Below the pieces are notes generated by a model. It was not told the origin of the DNA, ran no database searches, and saw only the letters and a program-made list of their open reading frames with translations. Both the position numbers and the translations under genes were made by a program. From the IMG/VR virus record IMGVR_UViG_3300018877_000003: a stretch of DNA of 64,000 nt. One strand, written 5' to 3'. Below are positions 1 to 39,881 of the stretch, one piece after another (positions within the stretch are counted from its first letter, which is position 1; the number at the start of each line of letters is the position of its first letter). This DNA is from a virus.

Positions 1-53
1 ACAAAAGGGCTTGAAAAAAGGGGTTGCAAAAAGAATAGAGGAGGAAGCCAGAA

Positions 54-377
54 ATGAATTTCTTAGAATTGCTATCAGATACAGCTTGGTTAACAGCTAT
101 CTCGGCTATTCTAGGTTCTGTTTTGACATACTTTGCAACAAAGACGAATAACAAAAAGGAAATGTCAATCAACGACAGAATGCAACTCTCTAAAGACCAA
201 TATCAACTTATAGCTGAATTACGTGCAATGATGCAAGAACAACGAGACGAAATTGATCATTTAAGAGAAGAGATTAAGCAGTTACAAGAGGTAAATGTTA
301 GCTTGATGATTGAAAACAAGGAATTACAAGTTAAGATTAATGCATTAAATAATAGACTATCATCATTTGGTAGTTAA
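54..377 (+). CDS. membrane-anchored coiled-coil protein, function unknown (late/lysis side)
   Basis: 107-aa ORF. GAGGAGG SD lies 9 nt before the ATG. N-terminal hydrophobic helix (WLTAISAILGSVLTYF) followed by a heptad-rich charged tail. Confidence 0.6.
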   Translation: MNFLELLSDTAWLTAISAILGSVLTYFATKTNNKKEMSINDRMQLSKDQYQLIAELRAMMQEQRDEIDHLREEIKQLQEVNVSLMIENKELQVKINALNNRLSSFGS

Positions 378-392
378 GAGGAGAAGATAAAG

Positions 393-722
393 ATGGAAAT
401 GTTATATGACCAAATTTTAAACTTAATAGCACTTATTATTGCTGGATGTGTTGGAGTAGTTACTCGGTATGTTGTTAAATTTCTTAAAAAGAAAGGCGTT
501 ATTGCAAAATTGGAAACTCATAAAGAGTTGACAAAAATTGTAGTAAATGCTGTTGAACAAGCATATAATCATTTAGACGGAGATAAAAAACTCGAACTTG
601 CGAAGTCAGAATTAGAGAAAGTAGCAAATAGCAAGGGATTAGCAATTACACAAAAAGAAATTGAATTGCTGATCGAGTCCACTGTAAAAGAAATGAATAA
701 GGCAATTAAAGAAGAATTGTAA
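393..722 (+). CDS. putative holin (LL-H-like architecture)
   Basis: 109 aa. Has an N-terminal TM helix (ILNLIALIIAGCVGVV) and an amphipathic charged tail with AVEQAY..G..K..LA, as in Holin_LLH-type proteins. Identified from memory only. Confidence 0.5.
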   Translation: MEMLYDQILNLIALIIAGCVGVVTRYVVKFLKKKGVIAKLETHKELTKIVVNAVEQAYNHLDGDKKLELAKSELEKVANSKGLAITQKEIELLIESTVKEMNKAIKEEL

Positions 723-817
723 GAAGTAGACCTCCCTTGAGCGTGCGAAACTTATAGGGAGGTTTACCGCATTCACCTTCGAGCCAGCCCCTTTTGATGG
801 GTCTGCTTTGTGTATGC

Positions 818-851
818 CCCGACTGTTGGCGCAGTCGGGATTTTTTGTTTT
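818..851 (+). terminator. rho-independent terminator of the rightward unit
   Basis: CCCGACTG-ttggcg-CAGTCGGG stem-loop followed by ATTTTTTGTTTT. Confidence 0.8.
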
Positions 852-915
852 GAAGCTCTAATGATTACTTTAACTTTGATTTAATCATTACACAAATTAT
901 ATAACATGTCAATAT

Positions 916-1785
916 TTAATTAGATATTTTAATATCAATCTGCAACTTTTCCTCAGAATCTTTTATTTCCTCAATCAAAATATTTAACCTTCTTATAATT
1001 GCATCCGCAGAGTATTCCCCATTAAGTTCAAAGTTAAATGTTTTTCCGTTGGCAGATATACTAGAAGAGTGATTAACTTTTTCATTTGATTCCTCATTAG
1101 TCACAGAAATAACATCTTTATTAACAGTTTCAACTAGACTGTTTTCAGTTGAAGGTTTCTGAGATAAAGACAGCTTATTAGCACGTTTCTTACTACTCTT
1201 TTTATATTGATATTTCAGATTATAAAAATAATCAACATTTGAGCCTTCCCAACTATCTACTAAAGAAGCAATGCTATGTTGATTTTCCATATATTTATTA
1301 AATATGATCATTTGCTGATCTCTATATAAAGTTTTAAACTTATCAAAGTCCATATAGTTATTTGGTTGAGAGAGAACTTCGTTTAATTCATCTTCGGATA
1401 AATTTGTTTTTTCAATATTACTTGTTCTCCCTAGACCATTTCTCGGAATATCTAGCTTATCTAAAAGTTTATAATATGTGTTGTGGCTAATTCCTAGACC
1501 TTCTATTATATTATGGATTTGATAATTTTCTCTCCAATGCATCATTAACATTTTCTGCTCTTCTTTTGACTTATTCTTCAAATCATAATAGTTGATTATT
1601 TCATTCATATTAAACACCTCGACTTTGCCGTTAAGTTTCTTCCGTTCTGAGTTATTCATAAATAAATAAGGAGTTCTTAAAGCTTGAGATATACCACCTC
1701 TTCTTGTGGATGCGCGCGCAAAAATATTCTTTCCTATTCTTTTCTTCTCACGAATCTCTTCATTAAGCATCCTTTTTACATTCAA
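916..1785 (-). CDS. hypothetical protein with possible HTH segment
   Basis: 289-aa ORF, last gene of the leftward array. The segment IIEGLGISHNTYYKLLDKL looks HTH-like. No family recognised. Confidence 0.65.
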   Translation of the reverse strand: MNVKRMLNEEIREKKRIGKNIFARASTRRGGISQALRTPYLFMNNSERKKLNGKVEVFNMNEIINYYDLKNKSKEEQKMLMMHWRENYQIHNIIEGLGISHNTYYKLLDKLDIPRNGLGRTSNIEKTNLSEDELNEVLSQPNNYMDFDKFKTLYRDQQMIIFNKYMENQHSIASLVDSWEGSNVDYFYNLKYQYKKSSKKRANKLSLSQKPSTENSLVETVNKDVISVTNEESNEKVNHSSSISANGKTFNFELNGEYSADAIIRRLNILIEEIKDSEEKLQIDIKISN

Positions 1786-1854
1786 TCTATATCAACTCCA
1801 GAACATACATACTCATTCATTATCATTGTATATTATTAGTGAGAATAATGAAAT

Positions 1855-1889
1855 AAAAAAAGAGAGGGAAATGATCCCTCTCTTTTTTT
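1855..1889 (-). terminator. bidirectional rho-independent terminator after phr
   Basis: A6-AGAGAGGGA-aatga-TCCCTCTCT-T6. The 9-bp stem is perfect. Confidence 0.85.
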
Positions 1890-1896
1890 AATATAT

Positions 1897-2016
1897 TCAG
1901 GTTGCATTTCTTTCTGTAACTTTAAAGGATGCATTATCTGCTTTAACATATGCTGATGCACTAACGCCTATAGCCCCTAACAATAGGACAGCACATACTA
2001 ACAATTTAATTTTCAT
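1897..2016 (-). CDS. phr: Phr-type secreted signalling pro-peptide (39 aa, not in the ORF track)
   Basis: Hand translation gives MKIKLLVCAVLLLGAIGVSASAYVKADNASFKVTERNAT. It has a signal peptide plus a C-terminal ERNAT, comparable to PhrA ARNQT and PhrE SRNVT. The ATG overlaps the rap stop by 11 nt, and an AAGGAG SD lies upstream. Confidence 0.75.
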   Translation of the reverse strand: MKIKLLVCAVLLLGAIGVSASAYVKADNASFKVTERNAT

Positions 2017-3133
2017 GTAATAACCCACTCCTTAAAATTTGTCTTCTTGCATTGTATGCAACACGGTAAAACTCACATGCATCATAAGCCTTCTCTTTAG
2101 ACTCTAAAATCTTTGCCGCAATGATACCGTAGTCTTCCACATCTGCATACAAGCCATTCTCGTTGAAGAACTTGAAGGTCTCTCTAACTAAGTCTACGTC
2201 ATGAATTAAATACAATCCTTTTAACATTTCGAACTTTGCAACATCATAAGCATTGCGAGCTTTTTCAGCAAACTCTTTTCCTTCAAGATAAAGATCATTA
2301 GCCGACACTCGCTCAGATTGTTTTGCTCTAACAAAAGCCAGATTAAATAAAGCTTTTGAAGTGAAAATATGATTAATCTTTTTGTATGCAGTTAAAGCTT
2401 TCTCTAGATGATTGGATGACTTTTCAAGTTCTTCAAGCTGATTATAACATATTCCAAGATTCAAATGCGATGAGCCAATTAGATGATCTATCTCCATTTT
2501 CTCTGATTCGTTTAAAGCTTTATTCAAACTTGGCAAAGCTTTTTCAGGAATCATTTGATCTCGGCAATTACCAGAAAATATAAATTGGCATCGAACTCTG
2601 TGCTCTCCATAAGTGTCATATTTTTTATAAATATCGTATGCTTGTTTAGCATAGTTCATCGAGAAGAATGTTTGTTTCATGTGATAATACACTTCTGATG
2701 TTTTAAAATAGAAGTCCGCTTTTTCTAGATCGTCACAATCAAAAGAGTGAAGTTGAATCTCAGCGTTTTTATAATAAGTGAGGGCGTGTAGTAACTCTTT
2801 CTGTCTAAAATGATACATACCAGCAAAGAAATTGTAGTAGTATTCAAGCATGCCCTCAAGGTTCTTTAGTTTTCTTAGCTTTCTAAATTCTTCAAAACGA
2901 CTATCAAGATCGCCTCCACTCGAACACATATAATCAAGTTGTAACTTGTGCCTGAAATCTAATAGGGAGTAATAAATTAAAGCATCTTGGTTTTCTTCCA
3001 TAGAGTCTATCTCTTCTTTAACTTCATTCTTTATTTTTTCCGCTTCATAAGTCCAATTATTTTTTAATGCTGTATACCAAAAATTCATTTTCGTTGTTAC
3101 CAAATCATAAGGTATTACATCGCTATTCTGCAA
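2006..3133 (-). CDS. rap: Rap-family TPR response-regulator aspartate phosphatase/regulator
   Basis: Rap-like N-terminus (MNFWY, YYSLLDFRHKLQLDY) and TPR repeats. I place the start at TTG 3133 (GGAG SD 9 nt upstream), giving 375 aa, which is typical Rap length. The track ORF extends to 3235. Confidence 0.85.
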   Translation of the reverse strand: MQNSDVIPYDLVTTKMNFWYTALKNNWTYEAEKIKNEVKEEIDSMEENQDALIYYSLLDFRHKLQLDYMCSSGGDLDSRFEEFRKLRKLKNLEGMLEYYYNFFAGMYHFRQKELLHALTYYKNAEIQLHSFDCDDLEKADFYFKTSEVYYHMKQTFFSMNYAKQAYDIYKKYDTYGEHRVRCQFIFSGNCRDQMIPEKALPSLNKALNESEKMEIDHLIGSSHLNLGICYNQLEELEKSSNHLEKALTAYKKINHIFTSKALFNLAFVRAKQSERVSANDLYLEGKEFAEKARNAYDVAKFEMLKGLYLIHDVDLVRETFKFFNENGLYADVEDYGIIAAKILESKEKAYDACEFYRVAYNARRQILRSGLLHEN

Positions 3134-3173
3134 ATCGTTAAACTCCTTCCACTTTAAATTCCCGTTATTTTGA

Positions 3174-3202
3174 ATTATAGCACAACAAAGGAATGTTATG
3201 GA
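3174..3202 (-). promoter_or_regulatory. candidate rap-phr promoter (extended -10)
   Basis: The - strand reads TGcTATAAT (-10 at 3174-3179) with a weak -35. It lies between the RuvC terminator and the rap SD. Confidence 0.4.
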
Positions 3203-3232
3203 AAGTGTTTGTAAGAATTTTTTAAAATATGA

Positions 3233-3258
3233 CAATAAAAGACGGTCTTCTAACCGCC
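3233..3258 (-). terminator. terminator after the RuvC-like gene
   Basis: The - strand reads GGCGG-ttagaaga-CCGTC followed by TTTTATTG. Confidence 0.5.
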
Positions 3259-3262
3259 TTTT

Positions 3263-3769
3263 TTATTTCTCAACTATAGGTTTCTCAAACTCTATCAAAT
3301 TATTCTTTATTAAGTATGTCAAAACCACTGCAAAGCTATCAGACTCATCTTCATTAGCAAATTCAATGTCAACAAAATTATTTTTTATGATCTTCTGAAC
3401 TTGAGCTTTGGTCGCATTCCCTTTGTATATAGCCTCTTTTACCGTTTTTGGTGGATAATAAATCTGATTAACATCACTGAATAGAAGATTTGTTACTCCA
3501 TGAACCCTATATATGGTCTGAGTAGCCGCATTAAATCTCGAAAATCCACGTTCTATAGTTACAATTGCAGGTGGATATGATTCCTTAAGATTATTCAACC
3601 AATTATATATCTCTTTTAGCTTAATCGCGTTATGATACTGATCTTTTTTCTTTTTGATTTTATCTGTGTTTACACTTCCAATAAAGACAAACTCTTGCTT
3701 TTCTAAATCATAAATTGTACACCCTGTGCAGGAGAGTGACAGGTCAAGTCCGTATATATAGTTTCCCAA
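3263..3769 (-). CDS. RuvC-like Holliday junction resolvase
   Basis: 168 aa. Contains GLDLSLSCTG, IERGF and a C-terminal ESDSFA, the acidic catalytic signature of the RuvC/RNase H fold. TTG start. Confidence 0.75.
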   Translation of the reverse strand: MGNYIYGLDLSLSCTGCTIYDLEKQEFVFIGSVNTDKIKKKKDQYHNAIKLKEIYNWLNNLKESYPPAIVTIERGFSRFNAATQTIYRVHGVTNLLFSDVNQIYYPPKTVKEAIYKGNATKAQVQKIIKNNFVDIEFANEDESDSFAVVLTYLIKNNLIEFEKPIVEK

Positions 3770-3857
3770 TATGGTTCAACTTTAAGATTAGGTGTGAAGT
3801 GTTTGTGTTTTGCTTTTTTTCATATAATTGGTTGTATGCAATTTGACGATTCGTCAT
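3744..3857 (-). CDS. small ORF (37 aa) overlapping the RuvC-like start
   Basis: GGAGG SD 8 nt before the ATG. Its stop lies 26 nt inside the RuvC-like ORF, which itself lacks an SD, so translational coupling is possible. Confidence 0.3.
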   Translation of the reverse strand: MTNRQIAYNQLYEKKQNTNTSHLILKLNHIGKLYIRT

Positions 3858-3873
3858 AAGTACAACCTCCAAC

Positions 3874-3907
3874 AAAAATTACTAGGCAGAATTAATCTAC
3901 CTAGTAA
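3874..3907 (-). terminator. terminator of the polymerase unit, nested just downstream of promoter copy A
   Basis: The - strand reads TTACTAGGTAG-attaatt-CTGCCTAGTAA (10/11 bp paired) followed by TTTTTG. Confidence 0.55.
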
Positions 3908-3909
3908 TT

Positions 3910-3939
3910 ATTATATCATTATTAATTCGTTTTGTTAAA
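3910..3939 (-). promoter_or_regulatory. 19-nt element copy A, full sigmaA-like promoter
   Basis: The - strand reads TTAACA-AAACGAATTAATAATGA-TATAAT. Core has 1 mismatch. Confidence 0.6.
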
Positions 3940-6900
3940 TTATCTATTACGTTTTAAGCTTTTTCTGACAAGCTGACACTTGTTAAGATGAAGCTCTTTA
4001 ACGTTAGGATTAGGCTTCCATTTTCCATTTTCGTTTTTCCAACCATATTTCTCTTCAACATCTAAAACTTTAATAATATCCCCTTCGTAGAGTAACTGGT
4101 CATCAAACGTCCAAAATTTCTTTTTGTTTACTTTAACAACAAATTCTCGACCAGTTTTGATCTGATAAAGAGTAACTTTTGGAGTATACTTTTTGTTAAT
4201 GTCTAAAACCAGCGCATATCTTCCATCCACATTGCTCCATGTAGAAGATGCATATCCGAGACTATCCTTTTCAAAAGCAATCTGATCATACAGGTCAATT
4301 TTCTGCGGTGGATTACTCCTAACCGCTTCTTCGTATTCTTTCAGATTTTTTAGTCGTTGAATCTTTGTTTTCTCTAAAAGACCTGCATCGTATTTCAAAG
4401 GTTTCTTAATTGTTTTCTCTTTCTCAGTTATAGTGACTTGACCTGTTTTTTTATTCTTTTTCTCTTTTCGGTCAATCACAATTTGGTCATCAAATTCTGG
4501 GTATAATTCAATGTTTGCTTTTTTCTTCCCTGACATGCAGAGGTATAATTCCAACAGGACTTCTTTCTCTCCGAACTCTCTAAAGAAATCGAGGCGGATC
4601 AATGTTTCCATTTGACGACTGTCTACAGAAGTTTTAAAAATGTCAACCAACAATGATACGAAATCATTCTTATCATAGTCTTTATCTTGGGCTAACTTAT
4701 AAAGTTCTTCTGCAACTTTTCTATTCAAATATTTGATAGATGCAATTCCTTTATAGATGTTCTGCTCTTTTCTATTGAAGTTGTAAAACGCTCTTGATTG
4801 ACCAAATTGTATCGGCTTGATTTCAACGTCCATTTTTTTAGCATAATTAACGATTTTTGTTGTCTTATCTTTATCATCATCTTGAATATTTAAGATGGTT
4901 GTTAAAAACTCAAGTGGATAATGATATCTTAAATAAGCCCCAATATATCCGATATAGCTATATGGCTGTGAATGGTTTACAGAGAATCCATACCGACTTG
5001 CATCGTCAATTACCTTTAGAAATGATTCTAAAATCTGCTCAATGTGCTCCTCAGATTCATTATATTGTTCTTTCATATGAGAAATAAAACCGTCATGAAT
5101 CTTAGGCAATAATTTTTGTGTTCCTTCTTTCTTTGCAAGTCCACGCCGAACCGTGTCAGATTCCGCTCCAGTATGTTTACAGAAGTCTGTAAGAAAGTTC
5201 ATAATCTGTTCTTGGAAAATAAGGTAGCCAAGAGTAGGTTTTAATGCCTCGTTCAAAGCTGGATGTCCATTATCTTTTGTCTCCCCAGCCGCGAGGTTAT
5301 ATCTATAGCTGTCACCAGATGGCCTTATTGCTCCATTAGCCATTGATAATAAATCAATATAGTCGATATCTCCAATATTATTCTTTATCCTATTCAAGGT
5401 TTCGTCACTAAACAACTGTTTAATATAGGCATGTGCAGAATCAGATTCAAGTTGGAATACTCCAAGAGTCGAATCACGAAGTGACTTCCACACATCCATG
5501 TCTTTAACATCGACATTGTCTGGAGTAAGTCTTTCGATATTTGCAAGTTTGCATGTTTCATTGATAAGTTCAATATTTGCTAAACCTAAAACGTCTAGTT
5601 TGACATAGTTTTCACCATCAAGTTCTTTCATATTAACCGCAGTAACACGATATTTACTCTCTTTTGTATATAATGTTGAAACGTTTGTCGCCAAATCAAT
5701 AGGAGACACGATAAATCCAGAAGGATGACTTCCCATAGATTCGATTACGCCGTTCATTACATCAACATATTCAAATAGCTCAGGGTATTTATGTCTATAG
5801 CTTTCATCAATTCGATCTTTTCCGTTAAATGTTTCTACAGCCTTGGCAATTGTATCAACCTCTTCTAACGGCATGCCTAATCCTTTTCCTACGAGGCGGA
5901 TCGATCCTTTTAAAGCTTTAGTGTTAAAAGTGACGATTTCAGCAAAATCAATTCCATCAAGACTAGCAAGATAATCGATTACTTCCTGTCTTCTAGATGG
6001 TGGAAAATCAATATCGATATCAGGAAGAGAGATACGGTCTGGATTCAAGAATCGGAAAAAGTTCAAATTATGCTTAATTGAATCCATCTCTGTAATTCCT
6101 AATACATAGGCAATCAAGCTTCCATTTACCGAACCGCGTCCATATCCTTGATAGATATCATTATCGTGACACCAGTCAATAATATTTTTTTGTAAAAGCA
6201 TATAATCAACAGCATTAAGTTTTACATAGGTGTCAAACTCTTCTCTAATCCTATCGAAGTAATCTTTTTTCTTTTCACTTGGGAACTTGTCAAAACCTCG
6301 TTTCTTAACACCTTCATTTATTTTTTGTTGAAAGACTTCAATAGGGTTCTCGTATAACTTTGGATATTTCGGAGTTTTATCCAAAGTAAACTCCTCGACC
6401 ATATCTGCCATTACATTAGTGTTATGTATAGCTTCTAAATATACGTTACGTGGCAATGCTCCTTGTCTTTCAAACATCTCAACTAATTCTGGATAGGATT
6501 TCATTGTTAAATCAAAAGAGTCTTCATCTCCATAATTAGCACCTTTTGATTTTAGAAATAGCTGTCTTGCTTTTGCGTGCTCAGCGTTTAATGCGTGTGT
6601 ATCAGTTCCAGCGATAAGAGGGATGTTCAGCTCTTTTGATAGTCGTAAAAGCATCTGATTAAATGCTATCTGATCTGGATGACTGTGATATTGAATTTCA
6701 AAAAACATTCGATGACGATTTTTTGCCATCCAGTTCAACATATCCTCAAACTCATTATTGATTGCAACTGCCTCTGTTAGCTTGCCAGCCTCTTCTAATG
6801 CGTTATATTTACTATACATTCTCCAGAGTGGGGAAGCCAAGCATGCAGAAGTCATAATAACATTGTCAGATGTAGCCTTTAATTCATCAAAGGTAATCCG

Positions 6901-7314
6901 AGGATTATAATAAAAATGACCATCTTCACGATTAAATGATTGAGATGTCAATTTATTGATCTCCAATACACCTTCGTAATTTTTAGCAATTAACATGTAG
7001 TGAAAGTTGTCACGTTCTAAAATCAGTTTACCAGTGGGACTTCCGTCCACGCCTTCTTCTTTTTTGATCTCTTTAGTTAAATAAACTTCATTTGCGTGTA
7101 TGTATTTCATGCCAACTTTCTCAATTGCTTGCTTCTTTTTAATCCAATTCATGACGCTTCCATGTTCTGAGATGGCTAGAGCATTCATTCCTAGTTTTTC
7201 AGCATAATCTATGTAATCTTGGTATTTTGTTACACTGTCTGCCCCTGTACCAGCCGTAAGGTTACTAATGTCAGAATGGTCATGATACATCACATAATTA
7301 TCCACGTACATCAC
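3940..7314 (-). CDS. DNA polymerase III alpha-subunit-like replicative polymerase (PHP + pol domains)
   Basis: 1124 aa. N-terminal PHP motif (HDHSDIS, GTDTH) and DnaE-type palm/fingers segments (GRGSVNGSLIAY, PDIDIDF). The exact start is uncertain (GTG, ATG or M9). Confidence 0.85.
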   Translation of the reverse strand: MMYVDNYVMYHDHSDISNLTAGTGADSVTKYQDYIDYAEKLGMNALAISEHGSVMNWIKKKQAIEKVGMKYIHANEVYLTKEIKKEEGVDGSPTGKLILERDNFHYMLIAKNYEGVLEINKLTSQSFNREDGHFYYNPRITFDELKATSDNVIMTSACLASPLWRMYSKYNALEEAGKLTEAVAINNEFEDMLNWMAKNRHRMFFEIQYHSHPDQIAFNQMLLRLSKELNIPLIAGTDTHALNAEHAKARQLFLKSKGANYGDEDSFDLTMKSYPELVEMFERQGALPRNVYLEAIHNTNVMADMVEEFTLDKTPKYPKLYENPIEVFQQKINEGVKKRGFDKFPSEKKKDYFDRIREEFDTYVKLNAVDYMLLQKNIIDWCHDNDIYQGYGRGSVNGSLIAYVLGITEMDSIKHNLNFFRFLNPDRISLPDIDIDFPPSRRQEVIDYLASLDGIDFAEIVTFNTKALKGSIRLVGKGLGMPLEEVDTIAKAVETFNGKDRIDESYRHKYPELFEYVDVMNGVIESMGSHPSGFIVSPIDLATNVSTLYTKESKYRVTAVNMKELDGENYVKLDVLGLANIELINETCKLANIERLTPDNVDVKDMDVWKSLRDSTLGVFQLESDSAHAYIKQLFSDETLNRIKNNIGDIDYIDLLSMANGAIRPSGDSYRYNLAAGETKDNGHPALNEALKPTLGYLIFQEQIMNFLTDFCKHTGAESDTVRRGLAKKEGTQKLLPKIHDGFISHMKEQYNESEEHIEQILESFLKVIDDASRYGFSVNHSQPYSYIGYIGAYLRYHYPLEFLTTILNIQDDDKDKTTKIVNYAKKMDVEIKPIQFGQSRAFYNFNRKEQNIYKGIASIKYLNRKVAEELYKLAQDKDYDKNDFVSLLVDIFKTSVDSRQMETLIRLDFFREFGEKEVLLELYLCMSGKKKANIELYPEFDDQIVIDRKEKKNKKTGQVTITEKEKTIKKPLKYDAGLLEKTKIQRLKNLKEYEEAVRSNPPQKIDLYDQIAFEKDSLGYASSTWSNVDGRYALVLDINKKYTPKVTLYQIKTGREFVVKVNKKKFWTFDDQLLYEGDIIKVLDVEEKYGWKNENGKWKPNPNVKELHLNKCQLVRKSLKRNR

Positions 7315-7828
7315 TCCTAATTAAATCGTTAACTCTTTTCTCAACTACTTCTGTTAGTTGTAAATAAACTTCATCTCCAAATGTTTTATGCAACTTTTTT
7401 AGATCGTTAATTGCATCAAGGCATTCATCAATCGATTCAATTAAGTCATATCTAACTACATCACTGTCGTTTACACCTTTTATACCAATTGCATCTCTAA
7501 TGGCGAATTTTATTTCTTCTTTAACTTTATTTGAATTAAGTAACACAAAGCAAAATGAAGGATAGCCACCTGTTTCGTGATTATACTCCTTAATTGCTGT
7601 TGCAATGATGTCATATGCAGTATCTCCTTCGGCAAATAAAAATACTTCTTCATGATCAAAATCTTTCATATGATTGATAAGATCAGGGTATATAGGATAG
7701 CCAAAGTAATAATACTCCTTAAATTCTTCATCATACCGAACATCTGTAATTAGGTAAGCATGGTTGTATAGATTGGATGAACGTAATTTAACAATGTCTC
7801 CTATTTGAAAATGCTCCAAATTAATCAC
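7298..7828 (-). CDS. hypothetical protein
   Basis: 176-aa co-oriented ORF. No motif recognised. Confidence 0.65.
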   Translation of the reverse strand: MINLEHFQIGDIVKLRSSNLYNHAYLITDVRYDEEFKEYYYFGYPIYPDLINHMKDFDHEEVFLFAEGDTAYDIIATAIKEYNHETGGYPSFCFVLLNSNKVKEEIKFAIRDAIGIKGVNDSDVVRYDLIESIDECLDAINDLKKLHKTFGDEVYLQLTEVVEKRVNDLIRSDVRG

Positions 7829-7837
7829 CCCTTATTG

Positions 7838-8440
7838 TTATGATTTTTTAATAGCCTTCTGGAAGCAGGAGTAACAAACGGATTCATATTTTTGCTTCTT
7901 GTCAGTAAAATCCTCAACACTAATTCCACTATCATCAATTTGTAGTTGACCATCTAAATATAAAAGGTGATGGGTAGCGTCATTTATACAATGATCACAA
8001 GGCATGTCAATTGTATTAATCCTGAATCCACACTCGATTGCGCGTTTAATCGAATCAAACATTGTCCCATTGTATGAAATCATTAATCCATACGCATATA
8101 TGTCCACATCATGTATTACTGATATTTCTGCAAGCTTTTCTACCTGTTGAACAGTGAAAAATTGCAGTTCATCTAAAAGAATAATTTCTGGGTTGTTATT
8201 TTGGACTTCTTTAGACATGATTGAACCATCATCGTTTTTTGGAACTACTATAGCAGGACGCTTAAATGTTAGTGCTCTAGATGCTACAAATTCTCCATCT
8301 CTAATGTCTGTTTCAGGTTTAAACGTAAGAACTCTTTTTCCTTGTTCATCTAGTAGGAATCCTTTCATAATTAATTGTGCGGACTTGGCAGATTTCATTG
8401 TTCCAAGTATTAAATCTCTAACTCTTAAATCTTTTGACAT
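7838..8440 (-). CDS. tdk: thymidine kinase-like (TK1 family) protein
   Basis: Contains LLDELQFF (cf. IDEAQFF), C-terminal CDHC..CYSC zinc ligands, and an atypical P-loop GTMKSAKS. Confidence 0.65.
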   Translation of the reverse strand: MSKDLRVRDLILGTMKSAKSAQLIMKGFLLDEQGKRVLTFKPETDIRDGEFVASRALTFKRPAIVVPKNDDGSIMSKEVQNNNPEIILLDELQFFTVQQVEKLAEISVIHDVDIYAYGLMISYNGTMFDSIKRAIECGFRINTIDMPCDHCINDATHHLLYLDGQLQIDDSGISVEDFTDKKQKYESVCYSCFQKAIKKS

Positions 8441-14221: not shown

Positions 14222-14578
14222 TCAATTTTTATCTGATAATTCATTATCAATTATTTTCTTTGTTGCTTTCAGAATAGCTTTTCTTAATTTTTTATTTGAT
14301 GCAAGCTCTTCTTTGCCGACTTTCTCTAGATATGAGATAGTTATGTTGAGTGAATCTTCAACTTCTATTCCTTTAATTAAATAATCGAGAGACACTTCAT
14401 AATAATCGGACAACTTTTTGAGCATTTTTAAATTTGGTTTACGCTTTCCATTCTCATAGTTTGCATAAGTATTCTTTGCAACACCGATTGCTTCACCAAC
14501 TTCTTCCATAGTTGGCTTAAAAGGAATCTTTTTTCTTAATTCTCGTAGCCTGTTGCCAAATTCACTCACTTTCTTCAT
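14222..14578 (-). CDS. XRE-family HTH regulator 2
   Basis: Contains FGNRLRELRKK...MEEVGEAIGVAKNTYANYENGKRKPNL. Start uncertain (ATG 14578 or GTG 14569). Confidence 0.75.
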   Translation of the reverse strand: MKKVSEFGNRLRELRKKIPFKPTMEEVGEAIGVAKNTYANYENGKRKPNLKMLKKLSDYYEVSLDYLIKGIEVEDSLNITISYLEKVGKEELASNKKLRKAILKATKKIIDNELSDKN

Positions 14579-14918
14579 CTCCCGAGACGTCATCATTTTG
14601 AAGTATTTTTATAAGATTGATTACTGTCTTTCGTTTTTCTTCTGTTAACTTATATAAGCTATTTATGGTTTGGTTTATTTCTGACTCATAAAGATGCTGT
14701 CTTTTCATTGTTGATTGGTTATATTCTGATCTTCCAAGTAAATAATCTGTAGTTGTATCCAACACATCTGCCAATTTGCAGAGTATATCATGAGATGGAG
14801 TGCTGTGACCTGTTTCATAATTTGAAATAGTTCCTTTTGTTGTACCTATTTTATTTGCCAACTCAGTTTGAGTTAACTTTTTCTCTTTTCGTTTCTGTCG
14901 CAACCTCTTAACATCCAT
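14562..14918 (-). CDS. XRE-family HTH regulator 1
   Basis: Contains LRQKRKEKKLTQTELANKIGTTKGTISNYETGHSTPS. Start at ATG 14918, with a GAGGTGG SD. Confidence 0.8.
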   Translation of the reverse strand: MDVKRLRQKRKEKKLTQTELANKIGTTKGTISNYETGHSTPSHDILCKLADVLDTTTDYLLGRSEYNQSTMKRQHLYESEINQTINSLYKLTEEKRKTVINLIKILQNDDVSGDEESE

Positions 14919-14951
14919 GTGTTTAATCCACCTCACAGTCTGTATAAGCAT

Positions 14952-14980
14952 ATCATACATTGGTTAAGTTTCTCAAACAA
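14952..14980 (-). promoter_or_regulatory. candidate sigmaA promoter of the XRE-XRE-zinc-ribbon unit
   Basis: The - strand reads TTGTTT-17 nt-TATGAT. Confidence 0.45.
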
Positions 14981-17017: not shown

Positions 17018-18889
17018 CTAGTCTTTTGTGGTTGGATATATGAAACCATCTGGCACAGGCCATTTAATTTCTGCTGATTCTCCCACCTTTAATCCTTTTG
17101 TTAAAGTTCTTTGAGCATTTGTGAGAGCCTTATGATAAGGATCGTTTTTAATTAAAACCAAATTCTCAAAATCATTTGTTCCACCATCATCTAGAGGGAG
17201 CTTGTGGTGAACTTGATAACCATCAGGAACAAGACCTTTTTTCATACTTTCAATATCTGCTTTAGTTAATCCTGCATTTATTAATTGATAAATCTTCTTT
17301 GGATCAACTGTCAAGTTCATAAGAAAATTTTTCCTAACAGAACTATTAAATTGATTTCTTAAAGTTTTAAATTCATCTCTATTACGTTTAGTGTAAGTTA
17401 TCTCTCTTTCAGAGACACTTTTTAAAGTAACGTTCTTACCTTTTAATTTCCCAATATATTCAGTTCCAATCTTTTGCATCGTGTCGATTACATTTTTATT
17501 CAAATCAGAAGCTCTCTTTATATAGTGAATGAGCTTATTTTTTATATTTTCACCATTTAGGGCATGGTAAGGGATTTTTGCTCCACCTGCAAATTGAACT
17601 TGAGGAGAAAGAGGGTTGTGTATTTGAATGTTTTTAAGTTTATTTATTTTGTCATGAATATATTTTTTAGAAGCTTCTACAGCTTTTGTTGTAGTCTGAC
17701 CAACTTTACCTGCTTTAGCGGCTTTCCCTACTTTATCAACGCCTTTTGTTCCAACAACTGATGTGCCGACCATTCCAATAGCATATGTAAACCATCTCGC
17801 TCTACTTTCTGCATCGCCATTGATAACATCTCTCTCAAAAGAGTCTTCTATCCCTTGTTTTATAATATTGAAGGTGTCAACAGGATGTATGATGGTATTA
17901 GCAATTCCTTTTAACGTTTCCATTGGATTAGTTAAGGTGTCCCAAATGCCAGTAGCAGTATCAACAACTACATCTTTCACTCCAATACCGATGCCAGTAA
18001 GAATGTCATCGCCTGTTTTGTTGAATTTAGCCAGATTGTAAATCACCTTCTGATCAGCAGTTAGATTGTCATAGCCAATCTCGTCAGCAATTTGAATATA
18101 TTCTCCATTATCTATAGTGTTATCAAGCTTTTTCTTCAATGCCTCTATTCGCTGTATTTCTTTTTCTACGGCTATTTTTTCAGCCTCTTCTTTTTTGATT
18201 GTAAGGTATTCCTGTGTTTTCTTATGGATTTCATCTTTGTACTTAAATGCTTTGGTGTCATAGTAAGCTTTTGCATTAAAGTTGATCGGTTGAGCATCCC
18301 TCCCTTTGCCTGTAGCGTCCAACAGGGCTTTGTTTCGCTCTTTGATATAATCTTGATTTAATTCCGATTTCTCGTATTCGTTTTTTAATTTCCAATCAAT
18401 TTCATGAATTTTGTCAACTGTATTGTCTTTAATCGCTTTTGCATTAGAGATATGTTCTTTAAAGTCTAATGTTGAAAAGACTTCTAACGGAACGATATCT
18501 TTTATATCTTCTAAGATAGTTTTAATCGCTTGCTTCTGTCCAACCACAATTTCATTCGATTTTCCATAGGCAACCTCTAGTTCGTTTTCTAAATAGGAGG
18601 TGTCAACAAATGTATCGCCCGAGAGACCAGCTTCTTCTAGTTTTCCAGCGATGCTATCAAAAAAAGCGATTTGCATGTCAATCATACCAAGCCATTCATC
18701 TACATTCCTAGCATGCTCTTTGTAAAAAGCCTTAATGTTGTCAGCACCTTCGCCTTGGAAATCATCTCCTAAGTTGGCTATTTCCTGAAAGGCGGTTTGA
18801 AGATTGACAAATTCTTCTCTAAGGTTCTTATATTCATTTGATCGACTTTCCATTGCGGATATAAGGGTTTTGGATTCATAAACTTTCAT
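17018..18889 (-). CDS. LXG-domain polymorphic toxin with C-terminal xHH-type HNH/EndoVII nuclease domain
   Basis: 623 aa. N-terminal LXG signature (FQGEGADNIKAFY), a long helical linker, and a C-terminal YQVHHKLPLDDGGTNDFENLVLI..DPYHKALT. Confidence 0.8.
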   Translation of the reverse strand: MKVYESKTLISAMESRSNEYKNLREEFVNLQTAFQEIANLGDDFQGEGADNIKAFYKEHARNVDEWLGMIDMQIAFFDSIAGKLEEAGLSGDTFVDTSYLENELEVAYGKSNEIVVGQKQAIKTILEDIKDIVPLEVFSTLDFKEHISNAKAIKDNTVDKIHEIDWKLKNEYEKSELNQDYIKERNKALLDATGKGRDAQPINFNAKAYYDTKAFKYKDEIHKKTQEYLTIKKEEAEKIAVEKEIQRIEALKKKLDNTIDNGEYIQIADEIGYDNLTADQKVIYNLAKFNKTGDDILTGIGIGVKDVVVDTATGIWDTLTNPMETLKGIANTIIHPVDTFNIIKQGIEDSFERDVINGDAESRARWFTYAIGMVGTSVVGTKGVDKVGKAAKAGKVGQTTTKAVEASKKYIHDKINKLKNIQIHNPLSPQVQFAGGAKIPYHALNGENIKNKLIHYIKRASDLNKNVIDTMQKIGTEYIGKLKGKNVTLKSVSEREITYTKRNRDEFKTLRNQFNSSVRKNFLMNLTVDPKKIYQLINAGLTKADIESMKKGLVPDGYQVHHKLPLDDGGTNDFENLVLIKNDPYHKALTNAQRTLTKGLKVGESAEIKWPVPDGFIYPTTKD

Positions 18890-18997
18890 GGATTCAATCC
18901 TTTCCCAAGCGATAGTTAGATATATTTTACCACTTAAGAGAAAGATTGGTGAAGAGGATTTTACTTTAAATCAATATTGTAGGGGAATATAGAGGTC

Positions 18998-19038
18998 AAC
19001 TTAAAAACACAATGAGAGTTGTGTACAGTTTTTAAGTT
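18998..19038. repeat. 41-bp palindrome A (11-bp perfect arms), probable terminator of the recombinase gene
   Basis: AACTTAAAAAC-19 nt-GTTTTTAAGTT. The loop carries the 16-mer ATGAGAGTTGTGTACA (19012-19027). Confidence 0.6.
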
Positions 19039-19044
19039 ATATAG

Positions 19045-19098
19045 ACTATGTTAGTTGTGGTTACAACGCTTTGCCGTTATGTTGTCAACTAGCATAGT
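19045..19098. other. 54-bp imperfect palindrome B, candidate attP or recombinase binding site
   Basis: ACTATGTTAGTTG (19045-57) pairs with CAACTAGCATAGT (19086-98) at 12/13 positions. There are inner ACAAC/GTTGT arms and a central TT at 19071-72. It lies 30 bp from the recombinase stop. Confidence 0.35.
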
Positions 19099-19127
19099 AT
19101 GGGTGAGCTAACATTCTCAAAATACGA

Positions 19128-20750
19128 TTAGCTGGCGAGGTATGTTTCTGATTGCTCTTTACGTCCTTTAATGAGACTGCCAATCACACCGACAATTGAA
19201 ATATTATATTGCTCACTTTCCCACTCAATTATAATTTCATCGATGAGCGAGGATATGATTTTTTGCTTTGTTTCAAAAGAAATCTTATCTTGATTCTTAA
19301 TTTCATTTTTAATCTGTCCAATAAATTTTATTAAATCCTTTTTATTCTGATTGTCGATTTCTTTATCTTGAATCTGATCCTCATATTTTGATATTTCAAT
19401 TTTGATTAACTTTTCTTTTTCATTTAGTTTTTGTATATCTAAATCCATTTCGTTCTCTTCAATATAACCTTTTTTAAATAATTGAAGTATTCTCTTTCGT
19501 TCTTTGGATATCTCCTCTAATTTAAACTTCAATAAATCGTATGCTTGTCTAACTGAATCATTTGCTCTTTCTTCTTTTCCAGCGTGAACAATTTTCGAAG
19601 GATCAAAAATAAAATCATAAATCATTTCCCAAATTTGTTTTTCAATTTCGTTAGCTTTTAAAATTTTTGAACAACAACTTTTTGCACCTTCTCCGAAAAC
19701 TCGACCATTCTTATTCACGCATCTATAATTTTTGTATGAATGTGTTGATGTAACCTCTCCTGTTACTTTTGATCTCGTTTTAGAAGTAGTTGTGTAGGAC
19801 GAATATTTTGCACCGCAGTGAGCACATCTGATCATTTTTCTCAAAAGATACTGATGTTTCACATTTCCTGAATGACTTGTATTTTTGACTCGTTGATTTT
19901 CTGCTAATGTAAATGTCGCGAAATCAACTATAGGAGGAACAGATACTTCGATCCATTCTTCTTTATCTCTATTTTCATAAGCTCTTTTTGGTTTACCTGA
20001 TTTAGTTTTTTCGCCTTTAATCTTTTTCATTTTTTTCTTGTTATAATAAAATTTCCCAATGTATGTTTCATTTTTAAGAATTTTATTGATGGTGCTCTGA
20101 TTCCACAAATGACTCTTTTTCATTTTTGTTTTGGCGCCCAATATGGAAAGTCGTTCACCAATTTCTCTGATCTTCAACTTATCATAAACATACCATTGGT
20201 AAATTTTCCTAACAAATTTTGCTTCTTCTTTGTTGATAACTAATTGCCTATCTACATAGTCGTATCCATAAGGTGGTACACGCATAGGCATAACAAATCC
20301 ATTTTTTACTGCCTTAATTGATCCTCTTCTTGTTCTTTTTTTGATTAATGCCAATTCATACTCAGCGATTGACGACTGAATATTAAAAAAGAGCTTCCCT
20401 TCTTCTGTATTCTTATACTCAGTATCAACAAAAACAAGCTCTACGTTACTTTTTTCAAATTCAGTACAAACAAGAAGTCGGTCAATCATGTTCCGGCTTA
20501 GACGGTCAGGATGAACGATGATAATTCTTTCTATCTTGCCCAATTTCACATCTTCTCTTAATTCATCCATCCGAGGTCTTTCAATATCTTCTCCAGAAAA
20601 ACCTCTTTCTTCATATTCAAGAATAAGATCATCAGGAACATTTAACTCTTTCGCCTTCTTCAAACAAGCCTCTCTTTGATATTCAAGACTTGTTCCATGA
20701 TCTACTTGCTTATCTGTGGACACACGTGTATAAATTGCTGTATATCTAAT
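19128..20750 (-). CDS. large serine recombinase (integrase)
   Basis: Contains AIYTRVSTDKQ (catalytic Ser), DRLSR, PPYGYDY, the zinc ribbon RCAHCG...YRC and a coiled-coil tail. The conserved N-terminus extends upstream of the track's GTG. The only in-frame start options there are ATT codons (20750 or 20756). Confidence 0.85.
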   Translation of the reverse strand: MRYTAIYTRVSTDKQVDHGTSLEYQREACLKKAKELNVPDDLILEYEERGFSGEDIERPRMDELREDVKLGKIERIIIVHPDRLSRNMIDRLLVCTEFEKSNVELVFVDTEYKNTEEGKLFFNIQSSIAEYELALIKKRTRRGSIKAVKNGFVMPMRVPPYGYDYVDRQLVINKEEAKFVRKIYQWYVYDKLKIREIGERLSILGAKTKMKKSHLWNQSTINKILKNETYIGKFYYNKKKMKKIKGEKTKSGKPKRAYENRDKEEWIEVSVPPIVDFATFTLAENQRVKNTSHSGNVKHQYLLRKMIRCAHCGAKYSSYTTTSKTRSKVTGEVTSTHSYKNYRCVNKNGRVFGEGAKSCCSKILKANEIEKQIWEMIYDFIFDPSKIVHAGKEERANDSVRQAYDLLKFKLEEISKERKRILQLFKKGYIEENEMDLDIQKLNEKEKLIKIEISKYEDQIQDKEIDNQNKKDLIKFIGQIKNEIKNQDKISFETKQKIISSLIDEIIIEWESEQYNISIVGVIGSLIKGRKEQSETYLAS

Positions 20751-24908: not shown

Positions 24909-25916
24909 TTAATGTGCTAATGTATCTGCTTCCCTTAGAAATTCCAGCTTTTTAAATAAATCTTCTCCCACATATTTTTTAAGCTTTTCTTTATTAGCAT
25001 TTTGATTTAAGAGATACATATGAAATTGAATCAATGTTACAACAGTATGTATAAAACCATCGTCAAACCCCATTTGTTTAAGAAGGTGCACAGCCAATTG
25101 TGAGCCAACGTATTCATGTCCAATAAAATTGGCATATCTCACCTCTTCTCCTTTTCTGTTAACAAAGCTCTTACAGAATGGTTTCCCAATGTCATGGAGG
25201 AGAGCAGTCCAAAGCATCATTTCTTTCTCAGTTTCATCTTCTGTCTTATAGTTGTCTAAAACATGCTTGTAAACGTAATATGTATGTCTACTTGTCGAAA
25301 AGCTATGATATTTCGAATCCTGAGGAAAGTCGTGAATAGCAAAGAACTCTCTAAAGTATGAGGCAAGAAAACCCATAAGATCATAACCTTCTCTGTTTAA
25401 CAAGACTCCTGCTCTCACCGCGTCAGCAAATTGTTTAGGGAGTACATCTTCAATTAGTCCTTCTGGGTAGTTAAAGACAATATTGTCCCAGCCTTCTGAA
25501 TAAATAGGGATTTGTAGACTCTTATACATATTGTCTATTGCGATTTTTGGCACAGTTCTCTCACGATGAGTGTTCATATCTATGCATGATCCATAGCCTG
25601 TCGCCATGTATACTGCCGTTTTAACCACTTCCTTTGGAAGTTGTTGAAGTAATCCTTTACGCTTTTTTCGGCTAATATTAGTAGCATCATAAATGACGTG
25701 TTTACCTTCTCTTAATGCATTTAACGTTCTTGTTCTCATTAGTTCAAAAACTTTTGAAGGGTCAGTCTGAACACTCTCATCCCCATATAATTCTTCTCGA
25801 ATCTTATCTGATGAAAGATATTTAATGTCATCTCTGCCGTCATAAATCTCTTCTGCGAATGTAGACTTGCCACTGGCAGGGAGACCAATTAGCATTAAGA
25901 ACCTCAATTGATCCAT
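24909..25916 (-). CDS. polynucleotide kinase (P-loop) fused to an HD phosphohydrolase, RNA-end healing enzyme
   Basis: N-terminal LIGLPASGKST plus kinase lid, and C-terminal LLHDIGKP...GHEYVG HD domain. Confidence 0.7.
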   Translation of the reverse strand: MDQLRFLMLIGLPASGKSTFAEEIYDGRDDIKYLSSDKIREELYGDESVQTDPSKVFELMRTRTLNALREGKHVIYDATNISRKKRKGLLQQLPKEVVKTAVYMATGYGSCIDMNTHRERTVPKIAIDNMYKSLQIPIYSEGWDNIVFNYPEGLIEDVLPKQFADAVRAGVLLNREGYDLMGFLASYFREFFAIHDFPQDSKYHSFSTSRHTYYVYKHVLDNYKTEDETEKEMMLWTALLHDIGKPFCKSFVNRKGEEVRYANFIGHEYVGSQLAVHLLKQMGFDDGFIHTVVTLIQFHMYLLNQNANKEKLKKYVGEDLFKKLEFLREADTLAH

Positions 25917-25937
25917 ATTTTCATCTCCTTTTTAGTT

Positions 25938-25956
25938 CATTATTAATTTGTTTATT
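25938..25956 (-). promoter_or_regulatory. 19-nt element copy F (3 mismatches), abuts the PNK SD
   Basis: The - strand reads AATAAACAAATTAATAATG-AACTAAAAAGGAG. Confidence 0.35.
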
Positions 25957-27276: not shown

Positions 27277-28116
27277 TTAAACAATAAGTTGATTGATATC
27301 AAGAATTTTATCTTCTAGATTTGAAATGATAGTTTTAATCTCTTTTGGAGTAATAATTTTGCCCTCTTTTCGAAGATAAGAGATTAATAGTGCAATTGCT
27401 CCCGCAACTAATGGTGACGCCATTGAAGTTCCAGTCATTTTTGCATATTTACCATCTTTATAAGAACTTAGAATTTCAGTAGAAGGAGCAAGAACATCGA
27501 AACCGCGATTAGTAAATGGAGCAATTTTTTTATCTTTATCAAAACCACCAACAGCTATCACTTCATCCAGACGTGCAGGATACAATGATTCGTTGCTTCC
27601 ATCATTGCCAGTTGCACAAACCATGACAATCCCTTCATTATAAGCTCTTTCGATCCGCTCTTTAAAAATGTTAGGCAGTTCTCTATCCATTCCTAAAGAC
27701 ATACATAGGACATCAAATCCATAGTTAATTGCATAAGTAATTCCATCCATTACGCTTGCCATATTTCCCTTGCCGTCATCGTTTAATACTTTAATAACAT
27801 GCAATTCAGCTTTCGGTGCGACTCCAGTATTTTTTCCTACTAAAAGTCCAGCAACATGACTTCCATGCCCTTTTTCATCTTCAACATTATGGCTTCTTTC
27901 AAAAAAGTTATAGCCAGATTTAAATGCATGGGATAGCTCAGGATGATCTGTGTCTACTCCTGTATCCATAAGAAGTATACGAACGCCTTCTCCTTTTGTT
28001 TTACTCCACACGTTAGGAGCATTGATCGCTTTTAGCCCCCAATCGATTTCGCTATCATCTCTTCTTAAAGAGTCAAACACTTCAATTTTGTCCAGATCGA
28101 TTTCTTTTCCTTTCAA
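27277..28116 (-). CDS. subtilisin-like (S8) serine protease, no signal peptide
   Basis: Catalytic triad contexts MDTGVDTDHPEL, HGSHVAG and GTSMASP. Confidence 0.85.
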   Translation of the reverse strand: MKGKEIDLDKIEVFDSLRRDDSEIDWGLKAINAPNVWSKTKGEGVRILLMDTGVDTDHPELSHAFKSGYNFFERSHNVEDEKGHGSHVAGLLVGKNTGVAPKAELHVIKVLNDDGKGNMASVMDGITYAINYGFDVLCMSLGMDRELPNIFKERIERAYNEGIVMVCATGNDGSNESLYPARLDEVIAVGGFDKDKKIAPFTNRGFDVLAPSTEILSSYKDGKYAKMTGTSMASPLVAGAIALLISYLRKEGKIITPKEIKTIISNLEDKILDINQLIV

Positions 28117-35680: not shown

Positions 35681-35709
35681 ATAATATCATTATTAATTAG
35701 TTTTGTCAA
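35681..35709 (-). promoter_or_regulatory. 19-nt element copy K, full sigmaA-like promoter
   Basis: The - strand reads TTGACA-AAACTAATTAATAATGA-TATTAT. The core encodes the last codons (LDKTN*) of the topoisomerase A subunit. Confidence 0.65.
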
Positions 35710-37864: not shown

Positions 37865-37876
37865 TTACTTCTCCTC

Positions 37877-39835: not shown

Positions 39836-39862
39836 ACCATCATCCTTATTTTTCTGTATTGT

Positions 39863-39881
39863 CATTATTAATTCGTTTGAT
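39863..39881 (-). promoter_or_regulatory. 19-nt element copy L (3 mismatches)
   Basis: The - strand reads ATCAAACGAATTAATAATG, upstream of the topoisomerase B SD. Confidence 0.35.

Follow-up and report, generated by a model that had tools for sequence, protein, structure and literature searches.

A rap-phr pair with the predicted pentapeptide ERNAT in a temperate siphovirus of Bacillus

Results

The rap-phr locus and its receptor gene

The sequence analysed here, referred to as the window, is a stretch of 64,000 nucleotides (nt) of viral DNA from the IMG/VR record IMGVR_UViG_3300018877_000003. On the minus strand near its start lies a locus which is almost certainly a Rap-Phr quorum-sensing pair, composed of a receptor gene (rap) and a gene for a small secreted peptide precursor (phr). 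The features of this locus were listed as follows (aa, amino acids):

3262-3237, minus strand: hairpin 3' of a RuvC-like gene, resembling an intrinsic terminator (-13.5 kcal/mol, z -4.0)
3202-3197, minus strand: weak -35 element, TCCATA, matching at three of six positions
3182-3174, minus strand: predicted sigma-A extended -10 element, TGcTATAAT, from the sequence and an upstream alignment
3150-3143, minus strand: ribosome-binding site of rap, GGAAGGAG, 9 nt 5' of the TTG start, read from the sequence
2006..3133, minus strand: rap, 375 aa, TTG start at 3133, stop 2008-2006, from Pfam, PDB and PHROG matches
2033-2028, minus strand: ribosome-binding site of phr, AAGGAG, within rap and 11 nt 5' of the ATG, read from the sequence
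2016..1897, minus strand: phr, 39 aa, ATG at 2016, stop 1899-1897, encoding MKIKLLVCAVLLLGAIGVSASAYVKADNASFKVTERNAT and overlapping the 3' end of rap by 11 nt
1890-1854, minus strand: intrinsic terminator after phr, perfect 16-bp stem (-22.6 kcal/mol, z -5.45), from a terminator scan and folding

The mechanical open reading frame (ORF) of rap reaches up to 3235, and the 375-aa form was chosen because a database protein with 99% identity (P0001) has the same start (MQNSD...). The NCBI entry named 'Rap family tetratricopeptide repeat protein' of Bacillus haynesii is 99% identical to the product and shares this start. The GGAAG core of the rap ribosome-binding site was kept in the upstream alignment with relatives.

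A preliminary description of this DNA, made from its letters and ORF list, had taken the 2006..3133 ORF for a Rap protein, and the profile and structure searches bore this out. The product matched the Pfam families RapH_N (residues 7-67, E 1e-21) and TPR_12 (E 8e-12) and the phage protein family PHROG 5208 (E 3.5e-101). The alignment to known Rap proteins that had been proposed as a check ran from end to end, over about residues 4-375, with the solved proteins RapI, RapJ, RapF, Rap3T and RapH (E 3e-92 to 2e-55; bit scores of 313, 218, 207, 201 and 192, respectively). The match to RapI (PDB 4i1a) covered residues 4-375 at 43-44% identity with an E-value of 2.9e-92. The architecture is that of the Rap family, whose members are RRNPPA receptors lacking a DNA-binding domain, namely an N-terminal 3-helix bundle followed by a tetratricopeptide repeat (TPR) domain of about seven repeats in a protein of about 375-390 aa. 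A cognate phr lies directly downstream on the same strand, and the same layout was seen in relatives and in rapI-phrI. The locus does not have the makeup of an arbitrium (AimR-AimP) system, in which the receptor has an HTH DNA-binding domain at its N-terminus and controls aimX: the N-terminus of Rap is the RapH_N bundle, no helix-turn-helix (HTH) profile matched this region, and no adjacent aimX-like unit was found.

The phr gene and its predicted ERNAT peptide

The preliminary description had also proposed a 39-codon ORF that starts 11 nt before the rap stop and encodes a signal peptide and a pro-region ending in ERNAT, and this ORF was present as described. In its product the signal peptide extends from residue 1 to about 21-23 and the pro-region over about 22-34, followed by the predicted mature pentapeptide ERNAT at 35-39. 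The signal peptide consists of MKIK, the hydrophobic segment LLVCAVLLLGAIGV and then VSA/SAS, which agrees with the Sec rule of a basic n-region, a hydrophobic core and small residues at -3 and -1 (judged by rule only). Residues 5-19 have a mean Kyte-Doolittle hydropathy of 2.7, and residues 24-39 one of -0.74. Phr pentapeptides follow an arginine rule (PMC3601965); the corresponding residue here, Arg36, stands at position -4 (E-R-N-A-T) and was invariant in 14 aligned relatives.

For comparison, about 20 diverged rap homologues were collected and their receptors were paired with the peptide tails. An equivalent ORF of 39-40 aa, overlapping or adjoining the rap stop, is present in relatives whose Rap identity ranges from 95% to about 40%, and it begins 3-10 nt before the rap end in every relative with usable flanks except two chromosomal orphans. 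The preliminary description had made it a test whether the small ORF persists behind homologous rap genes, and in these homologues it does, with the two orphans excepted. In the encoded products a basic n-region precedes a hydrophobic core, and a hydrophilic pro-region with 'KV(A/S/T)' at its end leads to the last five residues. The tails seen were ERNAT, ERFAS, ERLAS, DRFGS, DRLQS, DRMAI, ERAET, ERMET, IRIET, ERLMT and DRVGA (PhrI); apart from the Arg at -4, the tail positions vary freely in the aligned relatives. Among the loci compared, ERNAT was seen only in the phage lineage, and a literature search for 'ERNAT' returned nothing but a surname.

Purifying selection on phr shows in the estimated ratio of nonsynonymous to synonymous substitution rates (dN/dS), which was 0.05-0.2 against relatives; six of the seven substitutions separating phr from a 95%-identity relative are synonymous. 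On this comparative evidence the small ORF phr is a genuine gene. That it is a chance ORF, or that the whole cassette is a decaying remnant without signalling, is hardly credible. The ORF is short and was not called in the NCBI annotation of B. haynesii, and some relatives are orphan Raps without a Phr. Against this, six independent contigs carry intact and identical copies of the two genes, the dN/dS and the synonymous substitutions indicate constraint, and Raps down to about 40% identity are still accompanied by a Phr of conserved length with a signal peptide and Arg at -4. The receptor and the peptide also covary (see below).

The claim that phr is unannotated held in part. At the phr position no gene was called in the NCBI record of B. 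haynesii, whereas in metagenome contigs of ENA a 39-aa gene was called there but left without a name. Phr is thus a gene that annotation tends to miss.

Predicted promoter, terminators and operon layout

The -10 hexamer of the predicted rap promoter aligns with a conserved -10 of relatives in unrelated genomic contexts, and its T, A and T are invariant columns. This -10 region is common to the phage copy and to chromosomal relatives in the Bacillus licheniformis group. The extended -10 was absent from the promoter scan output because its -35 matches at fewer than four of six positions. Upstream of it, the hairpin at 3262-3237 was missed by the consensus terminator scan; none of 200 shuffles was equally stable, and UUUUAUU follows the stem. 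It is predicted to shield rap from read-through out of the RuvC gene. The terminator at 1890-1854 is symmetric, with an A-run on one side and a U-run on the other. The insulation of the cassette that had been claimed earlier is consistent with these features, as hairpins lie on both sides (z -5.45 and -4.0) and the extended -10 at 3182-3174 lies between them. A terminator-bracketed rap-phr operon on a phage is not a new architecture, as it was already described for phi3T (PMC8027211).

The layout suggests that rap and phr are co-transcribed and that their translation may be coupled, because the ribosome-binding site of phr sits inside rap. A separate sigma-H promoter for phr, as known for several B. 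subtilis phr genes, was considered and rejected, since AGGA-N11-16-GAAT is absent from the 3' half of rap; counts of this pattern across the window were at chance level. A predicted 5'-leader structure upstream of rap was disregarded because it spans the promoter itself. A scan of window positions 1-8000 against Rfam gave no matches.

Residues of the target interface and the peptide groove

Residue lists were taken from PMC3601965 (Table S2 and text) and PMC3601957 and mapped onto Rap via HMMER alignments, and the mapping was checked against the residue names given in the two papers. The catalytic glutamine is present as Gln49, equivalent to RapH Q47 and RapI Q53, and does not vary within the clade. 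At 15 of the 18 positions of the Spo0F interface in Table S2 (PMC3601965), Rap holds residues of proven Spo0F phosphatases, the subclass that comprises RapA, B, E, H, I and J. Among them is Asp67, the equivalent of RapH D65, which is within the phosphatase set, whereas RapI deviates there with Ser.

In the peptide groove the anchors Y68, Y150, D192, N225 and D334 were kept. Asp192 and Asn225 correspond to RapF D194 and N227 and to RapJ D192 and N225. The Asp forms a salt bridge with the Phr arginine and the Asn is invariant in RNPP proteins, and mutation of RapF D194 and N227 abolishes peptide binding (PMC3601957, PMC3601965). Position 300 (RapF E303/RapJ K300) covaries with the first residue of the peptide, as Lys with Glu/Asp, Leu with Ser, Glu with Lys and Thr with Ile. 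The rule linking Rap position 300 to the first peptide residue has already been published (PMC3601957, PMC3601965). This covariation suggests that the Glu of ERNAT lies inside the mature signal.

Predicted function of Rap and ERNAT

Based on these residues, Rap is probably a Phr-inhibited phosphatase of Spo0F~P which would delay sporulation and biofilm formation until phage-carrying cells are abundant. Spo0F was chosen as the main target because the interface is conserved and because RapI shows Spo0F phosphatase activity (PMC3601965); this choice would be the less certain part of the proposal.

Under the proposed mechanism, rap and phr would be transcribed jointly from their own predicted extended -10 promoter, between the terminators. 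By homology, the pre-pro-Phr would be exported via Sec and cleaved after VSA or SAS, and extracellular host proteases would trim it to the C-terminal ERNAT, or possibly TERNAT. As long as phage-carrying cells are few, free Rap would bind Spo0F~P and place Gln49 into its active site, as its interface residues indicate; Rap would then drain the phosphorelay, so that Spo0A-dependent sporulation and biofilm formation would be delayed. When lysogens or infected cells are many, ERNAT would be re-imported by Opp, as for homologous peptides, and would bind in the TPR groove. According to the anchors and the covariation, Arg2 would contact Asp192, the backbone would contact Asn225 and Tyr150, and Glu1 would contact Lys300; Rap would close and be switched off.

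Several observations weigh against this proposal. Three of the 18 Spo0F-interface positions deviate, with F131 for V/I, D132, and L136 for I, and these flank a one-residue insertion, C133, which is specific to the clade and common to the nearest relatives. In place of the RapF/RapJ anchors Q183, R223 and Q263, Rap has R181, S221 and K260, and the Tyr equivalent to RapJ Y297 is displaced by one residue. The -35 element is weak and the terminators are predicted only; more generally, the target, the peptide length and the expression of the cassette are all deduced from sequence. Furthermore, RapI also activates ICEBs1 through ImmA, without a response regulator (PMC3601965). Because RapI has this second, ImmA-linked function, homology alone does not fix the target of the phage Rap.

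It is possible, though unlikely, that Rap is a ComA anti-activator, which would block the binding of ComA to DNA like RapF, RapC and RapH, instead of or besides dephosphorylating Spo0F. Both pathways are repressed by Rap3T and by the prophage protein RapBA3 (PMC11343458; PMC8027211), and of the three ComA contacts checked, RapF Leu67 is conservatively replaced by Met69 and RapF Arg80 is identical as Arg79. The third contact, RapF Phe24, for which a critical part in ComA binding is reported (PMC3601965), is Asn26 in Rap, which argues weakly against this role, as only three interface positions are involved. Rap also scored higher against RapI (313 bits) than against RapF (207) or RapH (192), and for RapI the cited papers report ImmA activation and Spo0F dephosphorylation but not ComA binding (PMC3601965). 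If Rap did act on ComA, lysogens would be expected to show less competence, surfactin and antimicrobial production.

Comparison with known Rap-Phr systems

The best solved match to the phage Rap was RapI of the RapI-PhrI pair (ICEBs1, B. subtilis, 4i1a, peptide DRVGA). The two cassettes have the same layout, with a 39-aa Phr that starts within the 3' end of rap, and the same peptide register, in which the pro-region with 'KV(A/T/S)' is followed by a terminal [D/E]-R-x-x-x. The receptors are alike in having a Lys opposite the acidic first residue of the peptide, the catalytic Gln, the Spo0F interface and a mobile element as carrier. In vitro, RapI acts as a Spo0F phosphatase, and DRVGA inhibits it (PMC3601965). 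The pairs differ in several respects. The carrier of RapI-PhrI is a conjugative element, whereas here it is a siphovirus of about 158 kb; RapI of ICEBs1 acts through ImmA, whereas an ImmA-like protease was not found in the 64-kb window; and the peptide is ERNAT in the phage and DRVGA in PhrI. The equivalent of RapH D65 is Asp in the phage Rap and Ser in RapI, and the one-residue insertion at 133 occurs in the clade of the phage Rap but not in RapI.

Modules of the same kind, with rap-phr on temperate Bacillus phages, are those of phi3T (8rst), Rap105, RapBA3 and RapBL5. The rap-phr of phi3T is an operon with intrinsic terminators on both sides which is expressed during infection (PMC8027211), and Rap3T represses sporulation and competence, which is relieved by its peptides (PMC11343458). 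Inhibition of Spo0F~P is also reported for RapBL5, from a prophage system in B. licheniformis (PMC8027211; bioRxiv 10.1101/2021.07.15.452460). However, the phage Rap is just 34-35% identical to the Raps of the phi3T/Goe type and therefore belongs to a different Rap clade. Only one pheromone region is present here, in contrast to the duplicated RRGHT/SRGHT type of the phi3T/Goe-type systems, and the phage lineage (PK-3/FADO/PBC2-like) and the genome position (between RuvC and lysis genes) also differ from the phi3T-type systems.

Similarity to the pentapeptides of RapA-PhrA (ARNQT) and RapE-PhrE (SRNVT) had been emphasised in the preliminary description. These pairs do share the x-R-N-x-T pattern, the family and the general mechanism with the phage pair. 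Nevertheless, the RNxT likeness looks incidental because peptide positions 3-5 vary freely within the clade, and the nearest characterised relative among those compared was RapI-PhrI. Apart from the phage pair, an RNxT core was found at L043 and L045 (...AKRNIT...), whose Raps share just 37-39% identity with the phage Rap. Cross-talk with the host RapA/RapE circuits, which had been raised as a possibility, is disfavoured. When compared by published residues, the RapA and RapE receptors have Phe and Leu at the equivalents of RapJ Y297 and K300 (PMC3601965), whereas the phage Rap has Lys300; receptors of peptides with Ala or Ser first carry this Leu (PMC3601965), and the pairs compared here follow the rule.

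That rap-phr occurs on temperate Bacillus phages is already established knowledge. A survey counted 333 prophage-borne rap-phr homologues (PMC8027211), another described 326 viral Rap-Phr systems as polyphyletic and exchanged with bacteria (bioRxiv 10.1101/2021.07.15.452460), and 75% of Rap-Phr clusters have been classed as mobile (PMC5199041). The current picture, in which phage-host exchange of Rap-Phr and manipulation of sporulation are known, is unchanged by the present locus. What is new here is the peptide ERNAT, the receptor of the RapI clade and the phage lineage. The peptide and the receptor extend the catalogue of virus-encoded quorum sensing, and the lineage of their carrier differs from the SPbeta/phi3T models. 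With near-identical mapped pockets paired with ERNAT, ERFAS and ERLAS, the clade is a convenient natural series in which the divergence of Rap-Phr specificity can be followed.

The carrier phage and its cargo slot

The carrier was assigned as a temperate PK-3/FADO/PBC2-like Bacillus siphovirus of about 158 kb from the B. licheniformis group. The same exact Rap was found on metagenome contigs of 157-158 kb, one of them ERZ27286114:k141_714978 (158 kb), and six independent contigs have intact, identical rap and phr genes. A complete circularly permuted genome is suggested because the window wraps around the ends of one 157-158-kb contig. On an 809-kb contig of B. haynesii (assembly GCA_026792075.1), a copy at 580-601 kb encodes the 99% identical Rap with the same neighbours; this chromosomal copy and the serine integrase in the window indicate that the phage is temperate. 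A nucleotide search with the locus against 50,697 phage records gave no matches, and for the first 25 kb of the window matches were confined to scattered patches at about 80%, so the phage is not a sequenced isolate. Its polymerase has 78% identity to those of PK-3, FADO, PJN02 and 2S-4, and 72-76% to those of the phages PBC2, Kirov, vB_BanS-Thrax1/3 and vB_BcoS-136, which are about 160-170 kb in size.

The window encodes a DNA polymerase III alpha-type polymerase, a RuvC-like protein, thymidylate synthase, ribonucleotide reductase, type II topoisomerase subunits, DNA and RNA ligases, RecJ, primase, a large serine recombinase, an LXG toxin and a holin. Some SPbeta-type replication families (YorF, YorH and YosH_C) are also present, although the carrier is not an SPbeta-group phage.

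The preliminary description had called the cassette moron-like, which fits the comparison with related phages. As a stand-in for presence or absence within the phage lineage, the cargo slot was compared in PK-3 and FADO. Both keep the order thyA-DHFR-ClpP-TK-polymerase-RuvC ... holin-lysin, with RuvC at 81-83% amino acid identity and with a 107-aa protein and the holin also conserved, but their genes between RuvC and holin are unrelated to those in the window. It can therefore be concluded that rap-phr fills a variable cargo slot, together with one other gene:

916..1785, minus strand: p289, co-cargo gene in a separate transcription unit, with an HTH-like segment (IIEGLGISHNTYYKLLDKLDI); its membership of the system is uncertain

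With its own predicted promoter and terminator, and at a place where otherwise syntenic phages have different genes, rap-phr has the properties of a moron. The p289 gene always lies beside rap-phr in this phage lineage and was not found in PK-3, FADO or any other rap locus compared. Its product gave a weak match to a PHROG 'DNA binding protein' family (E 6e-4) and none in Pfam or PDB. When IMG/VR was searched with the p289 and RuvC proteins, no contig came up besides the one that Rap had already matched.

The possibility that rap is a compositional island was rejected, since its GC content (0.334) equals the phage mean (0.332). The composition of rap-phr is not atypical, and there is therefore no sign of recent acquisition. 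In contrast, chromosomal rap homologues are low-GC islands, with a rap GC of about 0.35 in loci of 0.42-0.47.

Possible control of the phage cycle

It is also conceivable, but quite unlikely, that Rap works in the manner of RapI or RapLS20 and controls the cycle of the phage itself (induction, the lysis-lysogeny choice or lysis timing) via a phage regulator or protease. ERNAT would then tell the phage that 'neighbours already carry me', and an arbitrium-like role would be played by a Rap. The closest solved relative, RapI, activates ICEBs1 through ImmA (PMC3601965), and some Raps of mobile elements govern the mobility of their element (PMC5199041). The cassette also adjoins the lysis module and the lineage-specific HTH-like p289, two XRE-type HTH proteins are encoded at 14222-14960, and a receptor like AimR did not turn up in the roughly 90 kb of the phage examined. 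However, the identity to RapI is just 43-44%, and nearer relatives (56-75%) are found in chromosomal loci without a mobile element to regulate. Elements activated in the RapI manner encode an ImmR-type repressor together with an ImmA-type metalloprotease, in which the motif HExxH is expected. No ORF of at least 70 aa with HExxH was present in the 64-kb window, and the Peptidase_M78 domain was not found in the flanking loci. The maintained Spo0F interface (15 of 18 positions) likewise speaks for the phosphorelay as the target rather than a phage partner.

A related idea, doubtful to a somewhat greater degree, is that Rap and ERNAT are the phage's own density sensor which gates induction, lysogenisation or lysis timing. 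Such gating may be direct, via a phage partner (p289 or the XRE regulators), or indirect, via Spo0A~P. Along the same line and at the same low probability, the phage peptide may also reprogram a chromosomal orphan Rap of the host (66% identity, similar pocket).

Relatives of Rap outside this phage

The closest Raps beyond the phage lineage are chromosomal and come from the B. licheniformis group (B. swezeyi, B. sonorensis, B. glycinifermentans and B. paralicheniformis), at 56-75% identity. They lie in ordinary chromosomal loci, for example beside queCDEF or after the suf operon. Their peptides are ERFAS, ERLAS, DRFGS, DRLQS and DRMAI, as compared with ERNAT in the phage. The mapped pocket of the ERFAS and ERLAS receptors differs from that of the phage Rap only at R181/Q and S259/P. 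Because these pockets differ at two positions only, cross-talk of the phage pair with the ERFAS/ERLAS systems of sister species seems more plausible than with RapA/RapE, which is a speculative suggestion.

Two orphan rap genes without a phr downstream were found at 65-66% identity to the phage Rap (L031, 10001-11122; L037, 8001-9113). The former, from B. paralicheniformis, directly follows the suf operon, and the latter is from B. haynesii. The mapped peptide pocket of these orphan Raps differs from that of the phage Rap at four positions, and they could be host receptors for foreign peptides.

The phage FADO holds another Rap, with 24% identity and at a different genomic position. An ORF after this Rap (L081, 3610-3738) encodes a Phr-like product ending in ...IQVAELPVGT, in which Leu replaces the usual Arg at -4, counted from the pentapeptide LPVGT. 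This recalls PhrBL3, a reported Arg-to-Leu exception (PMC5199041).

Other genes of the phage

The polymerase III alpha gene of the window (3940-7314) has only 42-43% identity to its counterparts in the B. haynesii and IMG/VR copies (L001, 6020-9190; L002, 1020-4187), whereas the genes flanking it (TK, p176, RuvC, rap, p289 and holin) are 93-100% identical between the window and these copies. It looks as if the replicative polymerase was swapped by allelic replacement within one phage lineage. The polymerase of the window type was also found on other contigs.

Two overlapping XRE-type HTH proteins (124 and 132 aa) are encoded at 14222-14960 (minus strand), beside a small Zn-ribbon recombinase-like ORF, and this pair is a candidate for the lysogeny regulators. 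At 17018-20723 (minus strand), in the middle of the early-gene block, a serine recombinase (531 aa, integrase PHROG 95) adjoins an LXG-domain polymorphic toxin (623 aa) with a weak HNH match near its C-terminus.

An S8 subtilisin-family protease of 279 aa is encoded at 27277-28116 (minus strand), in which the motifs DTGVD, HGSHV and GTSMASP, typical of the catalytic Asp, His and Ser, are readable. It was considered as the protease maturing Phr and judged unlikely, as it is without a signal peptide and closest to intracellular subtilisins, unless it is released at lysis.

An RNA-repair-like set and a type II topoisomerase pair were found at 24909-27230, 39900-40622 and 35693-39865 (minus strand). 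The former comprises an RNA ligase, an AAA_33 + HD kinase, which was read as PNK-like, and an RlaP nucleotidyltransferase. In one sister contig a ligase of the T4 Rnl1 type stands in place of the RNA ligase of the window. The phage-encoded topoisomerase pair consists of a GyrB-like and a GyrA/ParC-like protein.

A 223-aa protein encoded at 56185-56856 (minus strand) gave no match in our own Pfam scan and a weak match to a PHROG nucleotidyltransferase family. In the precomputed annotation of an identical contig it is assigned to PF26128 (Gad2), a name which we take to denote an anti-Gabija (anti-defence) protein, and the 223-aa protein may be one.

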